A stretch of DNA of 51,504 nucleotides from Promethearchaeota archaeon (GTDB taxonomy: Archaea; Asgardarchaeota; Lokiarchaeia; Sigyniarchaeales; SOKP01), in NCBI GenBank assembly GCA_011364925.1, contig RDOA01000022.1:1-51504 (forward strand). The letters are read 5' to 3'. Position 1 is the first letter of the stretch. Every line of letters starts with the position of its first letter. Positions 21,414-24,789 of the stretch are shown here, piece by piece. The notes below the pieces were generated by a model that worked only from the letters and a program-made list of their open reading frames with translations, was not told the DNA's origin and ran no database searches. The translations under genes and the position numbers were made by a program.

Positions 21414-22832
21414 GTGAAGAAAGAAGAAATATGTTTTATGCCCGCTTTTGAGATGTTAGAAACTATTAAAAATCAAGAATTAACGTCTGAAGAAATAACT
21501 GAGATTATTATTGAACGAATTGAAAAAATAAATCCAATTATTAACGCTTATTGCACTACTACTTTTGATTTAGCTCGAGAAATGGCAAGAAGAGCGGATA
21601 ATAAAGTAAAAAAAGGTGAAAAACTAGGATTATTGAATGGGATTCCTACATCAATTAAGGACCTAAATAATATAAAGGGGATTAAAACTACTTATGGTTC
21701 TAAGATTTTTGAAAATAACATAGCTGATCATGACGACATTGCTGTTAATAGGTTAAGAAAAGAGGGATGTGTCTTTCTAGGAAAAACTAATACGCCTGAA
21801 TTCGGTTTTAAGGGTGTGACAGAAAATTTAATTTTCGAGCCTACGCGTAATCCATGGAATTTAGAACTCACGGCAGGAGGCTCTAGTGGAGGAGCAGCTT
21901 CAGCAGTAGTAGCTGGACTAGGACCTCTGGCTCAGGGATCAGATGGGGGAGGATCGATACGTAATCCTTCAAGCTTTTGCGGAGCATACGGTCTTAAAAC
22001 AAGTTATGGAAGAGTTCCAAGATACCCTTCAATATTCCCTATAGATTTGAATATTTCTGTAATTGGTCCAATCGTCCGATATGTTAAGGATGCAGCGCTA
22101 ATGTTGGATGCCATGAAAGGTCCATTTGAAGGTGATAAATTTTCACTACCTAAAGATGGAATTCGATATATTGATAAAATTAATGAAGTTCCCGAAGGAA
22201 TAAAAATAGCGTATTCCTTAGATTTAGGTCACGCAAAAGCATTAGACCCTAAGGTTGAGAGGAATGTATTAAATTCTGTAGAATTATTTCAAAATTTTGG
22301 ATGGACCGTTGAACATGTTAAAATGAAAATGCGAAAAGCTACAATCTCTTTTAACACCATCTATACATCTGAGTATGCGTATAATTTGAAACCTTATTTG
22401 AAGAAGTGGAAAGATAAAATAGATCCTAACTTAATAAAATTAATCGATGCCGGTTTAAGTTATGATGGAATGGCATTACCAAGAGCTATAGCTATTCGGG
22501 ATCAAATGTATAAAACCATTTATAACCTTTTCAAAGATTATGATGTTATAATAACTCCTTCAACTGCTGTTCCTGCTTTTGAATTGGGAATAATGAATCC
22601 TTGGAAAATAAATGGGATTAATGTATCTCCAACTGGTTGGACACCATTTGCATTTCCATTCAATATGACAGGACACCCTGCAGCAAGTATTCCTTGTGGG
22701 TGGACTAATGAAGGTTTACCTATTGGAATGCAAATAGTTGGTAATAGGTTTGATGAACTTACGGTTTTACAAGTTTCAAAAGCGTTCGAAGAAATGGCAC
22801 CTTGGCAAGATAAAAAACCTAATATTACATAA
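21414..22832 (+). CDS. Amidase signature family enzyme
   Basis: IKDL, GKTNTPEFG, GGSSGGAAS, GSDGGGSIRNPSSFCG. Confidence 0.95.
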   Translation: MKKEEICFMPAFEMLETIKNQELTSEEITEIIIERIEKINPIINAYCTTTFDLAREMARRADNKVKKGEKLGLLNGIPTSIKDLNNIKGIKTTYGSKIFENNIADHDDIAVNRLRKEGCVFLGKTNTPEFGFKGVTENLIFEPTRNPWNLELTAGGSSGGAASAVVAGLGPLAQGSDGGGSIRNPSSFCGAYGLKTSYGRVPRYPSIFPIDLNISVIGPIVRYVKDAALMLDAMKGPFEGDKFSLPKDGIRYIDKINEVPEGIKIAYSLDLGHAKALDPKVERNVLNSVELFQNFGWTVEHVKMKMRKATISFNTIYTSEYAYNLKPYLKKWKDKIDPNLIKLIDAGLSYDGMALPRAIAIRDQMYKTIYNLFKDYDVIITPSTAVPAFELGIMNPWKINGINVSPTGWTPFAFPFNMTGHPAASIPCGWTNEGLPIGMQIVGNRFDELTVLQVSKAFEEMAPWQDKKPNIT

Positions 22833-22942
22833 CTTGCATAATTTTTTATTTTAATTCTGTTAAACTATTCTTCTTTAAAGTAATATTAAATATGCTTAGT
22901 TAAATGGATAATCGTGAAAAGAATCACTGGTAGAATGTAAAA

Positions 22943-23794: not shown

Positions 23795-24013
23795 TCAAAC
23801 TGCTTGATAATAACGTGGTTTTCTAGAATTAATGACAATTAACTTCTCAGGCATATCATTCACTATTCTTTTAATAACCTTGGCGAGCGCGTTATGTGTG
23901 TCGTATCCCATTGCGTTTGCCCATTCACTCGCAGTAGATCTCCCCATTTCTTTTAACTTATCGAGACAAATTTGTTCAAACGTTCTTGGTACTATCTTTT
24001 TTGTTTTTAAAAT
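23795..24013 (-). CDS. Small winged-helix protein (72 aa), probable ATT start; absent from ORF track
   Basis: Minus strand GAGGAGGTAA-AAAGTA-ATT then LKTKKIVPRTFEQICLDKLKEMGRSTASEWANAMGYDTHNALAKVIKRIVNDMPEKLIVINSRKPRYYQAV*; three-helix-plus-wing pattern. Confidence 0.7.
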   Translation of the reverse strand: MLKTKKIVPRTFEQICLDKLKEMGRSTASEWANAMGYDTHNALAKVIKRIVNDMPEKLIVINSRKPRYYQAV

Positions 24014-24616
24014 TACTTTTTACCTCCTCTTTCACTTATTCTAATGGATAAATTTAATATATTTACAAAAACACATTGAGGATGAATTACATATAGAATA
24101 GGTTTTCAAAACTTCCCAGGGCGATACGAGAAGTGGAACGTTTTTTTGCAATCTCCTAGTATTCCAATATACTATATATCTAGATTTAAAATTAGTACTG
24201 AGGCTATTTAAAAGATAATGTTAGATTTTTGTAGAGTTATACAACTTTTATGTATAAGAGTTCAAATTAATCTATATGACATATCCAACACTGAGCTAAT
24301 TTTTCTCCCGACATAAATGGATTTTCATTGACAAAATCGTATTTAATTTTAATAAGTTATAAAATTATGATTGAATTTGATAATGTAATCCCAAATTTAT
24401 AAGAGTTCTTTAAGTAGCATAATAGTCTTTGAATTAGCTCTATTTCATTAGCAGGATTACCTTCGTTTAATTTAACCCATTTAAATATTTCTTCAAAATT
24501 GGGAATATTTTCCCGCACTGTGGTCAATAGTTGAGAGGACATGCATAAATTTACAATAAACCGACAAAGTGAGGTAATTTATATAAATCAGAAGTGTTTG
24601 ATGATCTGACAATCAA

Positions 24617-24730
24617 GACTCCTGTGCCACCTTGGATTTTTGTCTTTTGGTAGCGCGATAATATAAAAATTGCGCCATGCTTATCCTATACTAATTTTGA
24701 CCATTTCGTTAGGTCATGGCGACAGGAGTC
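24617..24730. ncRNA. Putative structured non-coding RNA (three-way junction), strand uncertain
   Basis: Closing stem GACTCCTGT-GCCA / TGGC-G-ACAGGAGTC (13 bp, one bulge); inner hairpins GCGCGAT/ATTGCGC and TGACC/GGTCA; GGAT/ATCC stem; no long ORF over it. Confidence 0.55.
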
Positions 24731-24775
24731 ATCCTTATTCATAGATTAAAAATATTCAGTTAAATTTTAACCTAA

Positions 24776-24789
24776 GTTTAAACTTTTCG
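24776..24789 (-). promoter_or_regulatory. Candidate BRE-TATA promoter pointing toward the structured element
   Basis: Minus strand CGAAAAG-TTTAAAC fits the archaeal BRE + TATA consensus, about 45 nt upstream of 24730. Confidence 0.45.

Follow-up and report, generated by a model that had tools for sequence, protein, structure and literature searches.

A family of small RNA genes in one Promethearchaeota family, with complementarity to the platform region of 16S rRNA

Does the compact fold in the middle of the window (the whole stretch of 51,504 nucleotides of Promethearchaeota DNA analysed here) mark an independent small RNA gene, a regulatory leader of a neighbouring gene or something else, and if it is an RNA, what might it do? 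A sequence-only reading had described a GC-rich, multibranched element within a 1-kb intergenic gap and left its strand undecided. The composition is as described, with 42% G+C in the element against 27-28% in the remaining gap. The element does lie in a gap, but the gap is not empty: its left part holds a minus-strand ORF at about 23795-24016 that encodes a winged-helix-like protein of 72-74 aa; this ORF has a strong SD and begins with a codon other than ATG (its ortholog at locus L002 has a Met start). Folding of the plus strand of the element gave -38.9 kcal/mol (z -4.68), matched by none of 200 shuffles, whereas the minus strand gave z -3.11, with 2 of 200 shuffles as good.

Structure and conservation of the element

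Most of the helices proposed from the letters are present in the window copy (Table 1). The 13-bp closing helix carries its single bulge (a G on the plus strand, a C on the minus strand), the TGACC/GGTCA hairpin is there, and the second hairpin contains one G-U pair on the plus strand. The proposed GGAT/ATCC arm (24634-37/24683-86) was lost from the picture, since it is missing from the minimum-energy fold and is unconserved: its partner columns are mostly C, with the needed U in 11 of 77 copies and the needed A in 17 of 77.

Table 1. Features of the small-RNA gene in the window
Feature	Position	Strand	Remark
Small-RNA gene	24617-24730	+	
Promoter: conserved upstream/BRE-like motif and TATA box (24578-24585)	24558-24585	+	
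P1 5′ strand, closing helix	24617-24629	+	All 12 modelled P1 pairs with double-sided changes (82 sequences)
Invariant core: 3-bp P2 helix closing a 17-nt U-rich loop	24629-24651	+	Invariance and family restriction
Sm-site-like tract within the core loop	24635-24642	+	
BHB-intron insertion point of homologs, projected on the window	between 24637 and 24638	+	
P3 hairpin, spacer between two arms	24653-24675	+	Paired strands 24653-24659/24669-24675; variable sequence, conserved structure
Arm B: pyrimidine-rich linker and P4 5′ strand	24676-24702	+	Weakened in the window copy
P4 hairpin	24698-24716	+	Paired strands 24698-24702/24712-24716; double-sided changes in 5/5 pairs; missing from some subfamilies
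P1 3′ strand, with bulged G at 24721	24717-24730	+	
3′ tail: short C-rich motif and U-tract	24731-24740	+	Pyrimidine/U run after P1 in most copies

At the DNA level the element was found, equally sharply bounded, in 35 of the 36 genomes of the genus. A covariance model extended this to 119 of the 126 genomes of a single family of Promethearchaeota, with 1-18 copies in each; the window's own genome carries two, the second on contig C20. From 5′ to 3′ these RNAs share the closing helix P1 (12-14 bp, variable in sequence), a 3-bp P2 that closes an invariant U-rich loop, the hairpin P3, a pyrimidine-rich linker of 25-35 nt, the hairpin P4, the 3′ strand of P1 and a tail consisting of a short C-rich motif and a U-tract. 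Compensatory change, as expected of a functional fold, is widespread: in 82 distinct sequences, aligned by fitting to the model and hence biased toward it, double-sided changes occur in 19 of the 20 modelled pairs and 94.9% of cells are paired, compared with 29-50% in slid controls. P1 was recovered by independent duplex folding despite wholly different sequences, and both its sequence and the position of its bulge are free to vary among copies. P4 (99% of cells paired) is lacking in the copies of genus g20. A P3 stem of at least 6 bp lies directly 3′ of the core in 69 of 82 copies (10% of shuffles) and is built from 53 different stem sequences. Some subfamilies (copies L028, L029, L092, L200 and L440) have an extra covarying hairpin within the linker, at two different positions.

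The commonest locus (L005-L035 and other copies), which has a gene for a small membrane protein on one side and a large gene on the other, has a 5′ leader that can pair for up to 13-16 bp with the linker in a manner interleaved with P1; some copies carry matching changes, and the pairing would mask the part of the linker discussed below as complementary to 16S rRNA. Many copies other than the window's have a 5′ leader of 40-110 nt. Leader-linker pairing reaches the top 5% in 9 of 82 copies, versus 2 of 82 for a control region, and is absent from the window copy.

The invariant 19-nt core was found in 127 of 134 genomes of the family. Its counts in other Asgard families were at control level, as were those of a separate 16S-derived antisense pattern outside the family, and the 18 candidates inspected there lacked the family fold. 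The single copy assigned to another family comes from a contig of 1.8 kb and could be a binning error, and core-bearing records titled Thor-, Hod-, Hermod- or Odinarchaeota are probably mislabelled, judging from their Loki-type neighbours. One copy with compensatory stems lies on the minus strand of a complete 224.8-kb virus contig with direct terminal repeats (G400:102483-102590, equal to L058:38-145), amid short co-oriented ORFs; this virus has one weak protein match to the window's own genome. One ortholog has kept its genomic position in about 48 of 130 loci, some copies lie in pairs, others are decayed, and the most divergent copies keep only the core. A decayed core remnant with two changes, intergenic and without the full fold, was seen on the plus strand at about 40300-40330 of contig C91 of genome G000 (locus L205), and also at L044:42-73.

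Strand, promoter and introns

Three observations point to the plus strand as the transcribed one: the excess of G-U over A-C in the stems, a shared promoter, and introns in homologs that are readable on that strand. G-U occurs 100 times and A-C 23 times, in 16 columns versus 1. At unrelated loci, 22 of the 126 copies of the family are preceded by a 28-nt promoter motif, and the TATA box that had been noted on the plus strand of the window belongs to a site which is among the two best matches to this motif in the genome (4 mismatches). Paralogs at unrelated loci have about 200 nt upstream in common, including the BRE/TATA motif; the window promoter is homologous to theirs, with a leader deletion placing it directly before P1. 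The BRE-TATA sequence proposed for the minus strand (24776-24789) exists in the window but is absent at the orthologous loci L002-L004. From archaeal TATA spacing, transcription is predicted to start at about 24608-24611, and the 3′ tail is likely to be the terminator region. A sigma-70 and terminator scan, with models not suited to archaea, gave nothing above shuffles. Just upstream of P1, at 24598-24610 on the plus strand, C-box-like and D-box-like words stand back to back; they are probably there by chance because they are absent from the orthologs at L002-L004.

The genomic setting speaks against a leader acting in cis, which had been the other option at the outset, because the genes downstream fall into 63 unrelated clusters, 34 on the same strand and 29 on the opposite one. 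Convergent neighbours lie closer and divergent ones further away, fitting a plus-strand gene. Sequences from RNA libraries offer weak support for transcription: the commonest copy of the family is present in metatranscriptomes of several studies, in one run as a contig extending from the leader to just beyond the U-tract and in another as an adapter-bounded insert over most of the RNA, which would be of the plus strand if the library was dUTP-stranded. Both derive from a paralog of the window copy and could reflect DNA carry-over; such contigs give no level, ends or strand, and the flanks that they leave uncovered carry no meaning.

Strong indirect evidence for a stable plus-strand RNA comes from insertions. 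Six copies (L348-L353), from four genomes (G130, G116, G121, G134) in three genera, carry different inserts of 29-31 nt at one site in the core, and deleting the insert restores the core exactly in all six. Each insert can form a central 4-bp helix (6/6) with two 3-nt bulges and an intron stem of 2-8 bp, which is the HBh′ form. We know of no earlier bulge-helix-bulge (BHB) intron in a small RNA other than tRNA and rRNA, and no earlier case in a small non-tRNA RNA was found in the literature searched, so that this is apparently the first small RNA of its kind to carry tRNA-type introns. The inserts resemble archaeal tRNA BHB introns in their length of 29-31 nt, 4-bp helix, two 3-nt bulges and intron stem, and the HBh′ splice-site form is known from them (PMC4090602); they differ in their host, here a small RNA that is neither tRNA nor rRNA. 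From these features we predict that they are tRNA-type BHB introns and are spliced.

Taken with the covariation, the conserved promoter of its own, the random orientation of neighbours and the RNA-library contigs, the introns favour the independent small RNA among the possibilities first raised. There is very little doubt that the window contains a real, previously undescribed small RNA gene, and the RNA family to which it belongs is new and well supported: an Rfam scan (gathering thresholds and E <= 10) returned only chance matches, with no Rfam family for the element, and no description was found in the literature searched, a search that was incomplete.

Known classes of RNA were compared with the family. 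As had been stated, the element is neither a tRNA (ARAGORN gave 0 matches, and the alignments have no T loop or anticodon stem, which speaks against a tmRNA as well) nor a 5S rRNA (no model match; the 5S of this lineage is a separate, circularly permuted gene). The idea that it supplies a missing 5S was rejected, as the family genomes lack an Rfam-grade 5S but have the permuted gene elsewhere. The permuted gene starts in helix III, has its native ends joined via a UUCG-type loop and is flanked by an inverted repeat (about 22715-22900 on the plus strand of contig C53 of G000; about 1490-1680 of L051; also L254-L269); Rfam misses it because of the permutation, and family f2 has ordinary 5S genes. 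A resemblance to Y RNA, offered earlier as speculation, did not hold up. The family shares with Y RNA and YrlA a bulged stem that joins the ends around a pyrimidine-rich loop, but Ro60/TROVE was found in 0 of 61 family genomes, the window's own included (a Deinococcus control was positive), there is no Rfam match, and P1, whose sequence and bulge vary freely, offers no conserved bulged-C Ro-binding helix. SRP RNA and RNase P RNA are separate genes in family genomes (SRP RNA was not found in the fragmented assembly of the window's own genome). Against a box C/D sRNA stand the lack of a conserved C box in 83 aligned copies and of a kink-turn, with CUGA in only part of them; against an H/ACA sRNA, a 3′ flank that is C-rich and then a U-tract rather than ANA, and P3 being a plain variable hairpin. 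A small ORF or leader peptide was dismissed, given that an ATG precedes P1 in frames 0, 1 and 2 in 24, 25 and 10 copies and is absent in 23, including the window copy. The 7-nt repeat implied by a telomerase-like template never occurs in tandem in the window's own genome. An HDV-like ribozyme has a helix order similar to that of the copies with a leader, but these lack both P1.1 and a catalytic J4/2, and pairing of the leader occurs in only part of the family.

Complementarity to 16S rRNA

The first clue to a partner came from a genome-wide search with the core, in which the 16S gene of the same genome was among the top non-self matches. The linker is complementary to a site 60 nt upstream of that of the core, in antiparallel order. 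Two arms can thus be laid along the 16S platform (approximate E. coli numbering, anchored at the 790 loop): arm B opposite about 664-698, comprising the 5′ strands of h22 and h23 and the 690 loop, and arm A, the core, opposite about 757-775 (the h20 3′ strand and the h24 5′ strand), with one bulged A. The match was seen post hoc, and the limits of the arms were set afterwards.

A blind, wobble-aware profile of arm B was run over 7.8 Mb, where 16S 665-698 was the top non-self site (the E-values of this search are meaningless and only the rank counts). The profile scored 27.9 there, compared with 18.1 +- 2.2 for column shuffles (0 of 400 as high) and 12.6-16.9 on 23S and antisense rRNA. With both arms the score was 62.2, versus 44.9 +- 2.4 for shuffles (0/150), and in a two-arm genome scan 16S scored 61.2 and the next non-self site 51.5. 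Against 16S and 23S together, arm B was equalled by none of 100 shuffles in all 12 scoring and block-shuffle settings, even without credit for G-U, a test failed by two control segments taken from the RNA's own stems. Copy by copy, the best 16S site fell at 650-675 in 41 of 83 copies versus 12% of shuffles, and further metagenome copies, less than 90% identical to the first set, hit the same site in 24 of 68 versus 5.5%; these counts overstate the case because the copies are kin.

The variation among copies is informative about pairing. The 16S target sites are almost invariant in 28 16S sequences, within the family and beyond, and covariation between RNA and rRNA is missing because the rRNA side does not vary. 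On the RNA side variation is of the wobble type only: an RNA G faces a 16S U 158 times while an A faces a C 13 times, and an RNA U faces a 16S G 786 times while a C faces an A 31 times. The linker's only purine columns sit opposite a 16S U or C. Variation within columns keeps the 16S pairing, and this speaks against a minus strand that merely drifts as a copy of 16S.

The case for arm A is marginal when taken alone. By energy it was matched by 4 of 400 shuffles against the 5′ 800 nt of 16S; against 16S and 23S together, 4-15% of shuffles were as good, and the signal was gone without G-U. Five U's of the core that face G never become C, a constancy that pairing alone leaves unexplained, although the invariance of the core is due in part to the selection of copies on the core. 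Pairing of the core with 16S 757-775 is therefore only something that may occur, and the invariant U's, placed where C would pair better, suggest a protein site. The U-rich core probably binds a protein as well.

Energetic comparisons also temper the picture. Against folded 16S 570-820, the net gain was only 1-4.5 kcal/mol; the folded rRNA is hard to invade. Unconstrained co-folding placed the target region at ranks 3-18 among 178 with five copies and at rank 151 with the window copy, and alternative registers within this G-rich stretch of 16S scored equally. The register of arm B differs among subfamilies; in several of these, the orthologs of the window copy included, the stretch opposite the 690 loop is gone. 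Many copies have a weak arm B: for the window copy alone p = 0.2, compared with 0.02 and 0.05 for its orthologs at L002 and L004. The window copy keeps arm A, whose duplex of -21.8 kcal/mol has a G-U as its sole change, and with core and promoter intact it could be a paralog that has weakened or become specialised. On balance, we judge that pairing between these RNAs and 16S rRNA probably does take place in the cell.

Other Asgards have the same 16S target, and the small RNA was not found in them outside this family; genomes of family f2 likewise yielded none. Three features of rRNA genes were seen along the way. In most f2 genomes a bacterial-type pair closes the h23 690 loop, unlike in f1 (16S loci L226, L229 and L231-L234). 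The 16S of G014 (L207) is about 89 nt shorter than its relatives between h23 and the 3′ end, through deletion or assembly error. In G008 (contig C3) and G134 (contig C1), 16S and 23S are unlinked, lying about 50 kb apart, with a 23S of about 3.4 kb.

Possible roles and known systems

What might such pairing achieve? We propose a transient, box-less archaeal functional analogue of snR30/U17, that is, a chaperone of 30S-platform assembly, and put the probability of this reading at about 0.4. An independently transcribed RNA of about 120 nt would have its ends joined by P1, while P3 and P4 would keep two single-stranded arms open. Arm B would bind the 5′ strands of h22 and h23 and the 690 loop on nascent or unfolded pre-16S, since these sites are paired in mature 16S; the core would perhaps clamp 757-775, so that 699-756 loops out opposite P3. 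Binding would delay folding of the platform, keeping it open for a time, after which the RNA would be displaced. In many copies, we speculate, leader pairing could mask arm B until processing. For the protein of the core, an Sm/LSm ring is our leading guess and a candidate only. The Sm-site-like tract had been remarked on before; it is present, with its U-tract at 24636-24642, is invariant in the family and is followed immediately by P3. The window's own genome has four LSm paralogs (L053-L056); by eye, one of them neighbours an rpl37e-like ORF and another is close to a gene resembling a RIO kinase. No LSm gene adjoins any copy examined or occurs in the virus; a Krr1 KH model found no match in five genomes, which is uninformative. 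Slightly less probable than the chaperone role is the full proposition that a box-less, intron-bearing, virus-borne Asgard RNA forms a duplex of 30-50 nt with the platform of 16S in 30S assembly, possibly as an Sm/LSm RNP, and is the first prokaryotic counterpart of the rRNA-chaperone snoRNAs.

Two other functions compete with this proposal. The function might instead lie in the core, the RNA being bound by Sm/LSm in the manner of an snRNA or acting as a sponge that takes up an RNA-binding protein, with a C-rich linker that targets SD sites of mRNAs or nothing at all and a 16S match that is an ancestral relic or chance. We consider this unlikely but worth serious attention: only the core survives in the most divergent copies, its Sm-consensus-like tract is followed by a hairpin in a genome with four LSm genes, and the linker often has an anti-SD-like run. 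It sits poorly with a linker whose base order, beyond its composition, fits 16S and whose purine columns face U or C there, with mRNA targets of the core that were no better than those of a reversed-core control, and with the lack of LSm genes beside the copies or in the virus. A somewhat fainter prospect is that the 16S pairing is inhibitory, an antisense brake that slows translation or the assembly of ribosomes in dormancy or stress, with nucleation at the exposed 690 loop or on pre-16S leading to storage or decay. All the complementarity applies equally to it, and nothing separates chaperone from inhibitor; a copy number of 1-18, restriction to one family and the virus copy even suit a regulator better than an essential biogenesis factor. 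The loss of the part facing the 690 loop in several subfamilies, including the window's orthologs, tells against a brake, as do near-universal presence in family genomes and retention of orthologs at their loci, as for a housekeeping gene. Were the RNA an inhibitor, it would be an antisense ribosome switch in very slow-growing sediment archaea, used by a virus too.

The remaining alternatives carry much less weight. U13/snR45 and snR4 are two-site acetylation guides, and the arrangement here, in which two arms border a target loop, one to each side of an upper stem, resembles a guide pocket; a guide that directs modification or cleavage of rRNA within or close to the looped-out 699-756 is nevertheless improbable, with no conserved C/D boxes, kink-turn or ACA box, an unpaired target stretch of 58 nt, not two, and registers of arm B that differ among subfamilies. 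Least probable of all is a non-autonomous, MITE- or SINE-like mobile element without a function in the cell, for which P1 would be the terminal inverted repeat. Dispersal in up to 18 copies, of which some lie in pairs and some are decayed, and the upstream sequence common to paralogs are what such an element would leave behind, but here the ends vary freely, with compensatory and G-U changes, around an invariant interior, the opposite of what a MITE shows. Synteny of the loci extends across species, the copies have no transposase-like cluster in common among their neighbours, copies carry predicted spliceable introns, and, in agreement with the sequence-only reading, no target-site duplication flanks the window copy. 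As the sole explanation, a MITE is largely refuted.

How, then, does the proposed platform chaperone compare with known systems? Archaeal ribosome assembly has been described with modification guides and proteins. In eukaryotes, U3 and U14 are stand-alone box C/D RNAs that control the folding of rRNA through transient pairing with conserved parts of it, and to our knowledge trans-acting RNA chaperones of rRNA folding that guide no modification (U3, U14, snR30/U17) are known only from there. A further rRNA-chaperone snoRNA is reported to be snR190 (PMC8536666). The RNAs described here are likewise stand-alone and small, with predicted rRNA pairing, but have another target and no conserved C/D boxes. 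Small archaeal RNAs that act on the ribosome include rancRNA_s194 and a Val-tRF of Haloferax (PMC6104027, PMC5711459); their structure is unrelated, and the portions of these reports consulted mention no 30-50-nt pairing with 16S. With Sm-class snRNAs (U2, U7) the family shares an invariant purine-A-U5-G tract that immediately precedes a hairpin, and the window's own genome has several LSm paralogs; here the tract lies inside a closed multiloop, there is no spliceosome, and binding of Sm/LSm is putative. The ligands of archaeal SmAP offer a comparison for the core tract (PMC9887622).

The closest parallel is snR30/U17, in which two internal-loop motifs keep hold of the central domain during the assembly of h20, h22 and h23 with uS11 and uS15 (PMC12095548, PMC7601244); it provides a eukaryotic precedent both for an RNA chaperone of these platform helices (PMC12095548) and for two-arm pairing that loops out the intervening rRNA (PMC7601244). 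Common to both are two separated single-stranded motifs of an internal loop that pair with the SSU central domain and loop out the rRNA between their sites (in our case a prediction, marginal for arm A), action on the platform, and no guided modification. snR30/U17 has H and ACA boxes, binds Cbf5, Nop10, Nhp2 and Gar1, pairs with the eukaryote-specific ES6 and is backed by proven compensatory changes, whereas the archaeal RNA is box-less, about 120 nt long, multi-copy and family-restricted and would target h22/h23 themselves; we claim no homology. It was found in a single Loki family, so nothing requires it to be the ancestor of any eukaryotic RNA or system. If the proposal is right, the RNA-chaperone strategy that snR30 applies to the platform helices exists in archaea too, in a small system of 120 nt with a defined target and a candidate Sm partner, and relatives of the eukaryotic ancestor possess an rRNA chaperone with an Sm-site-like tract.
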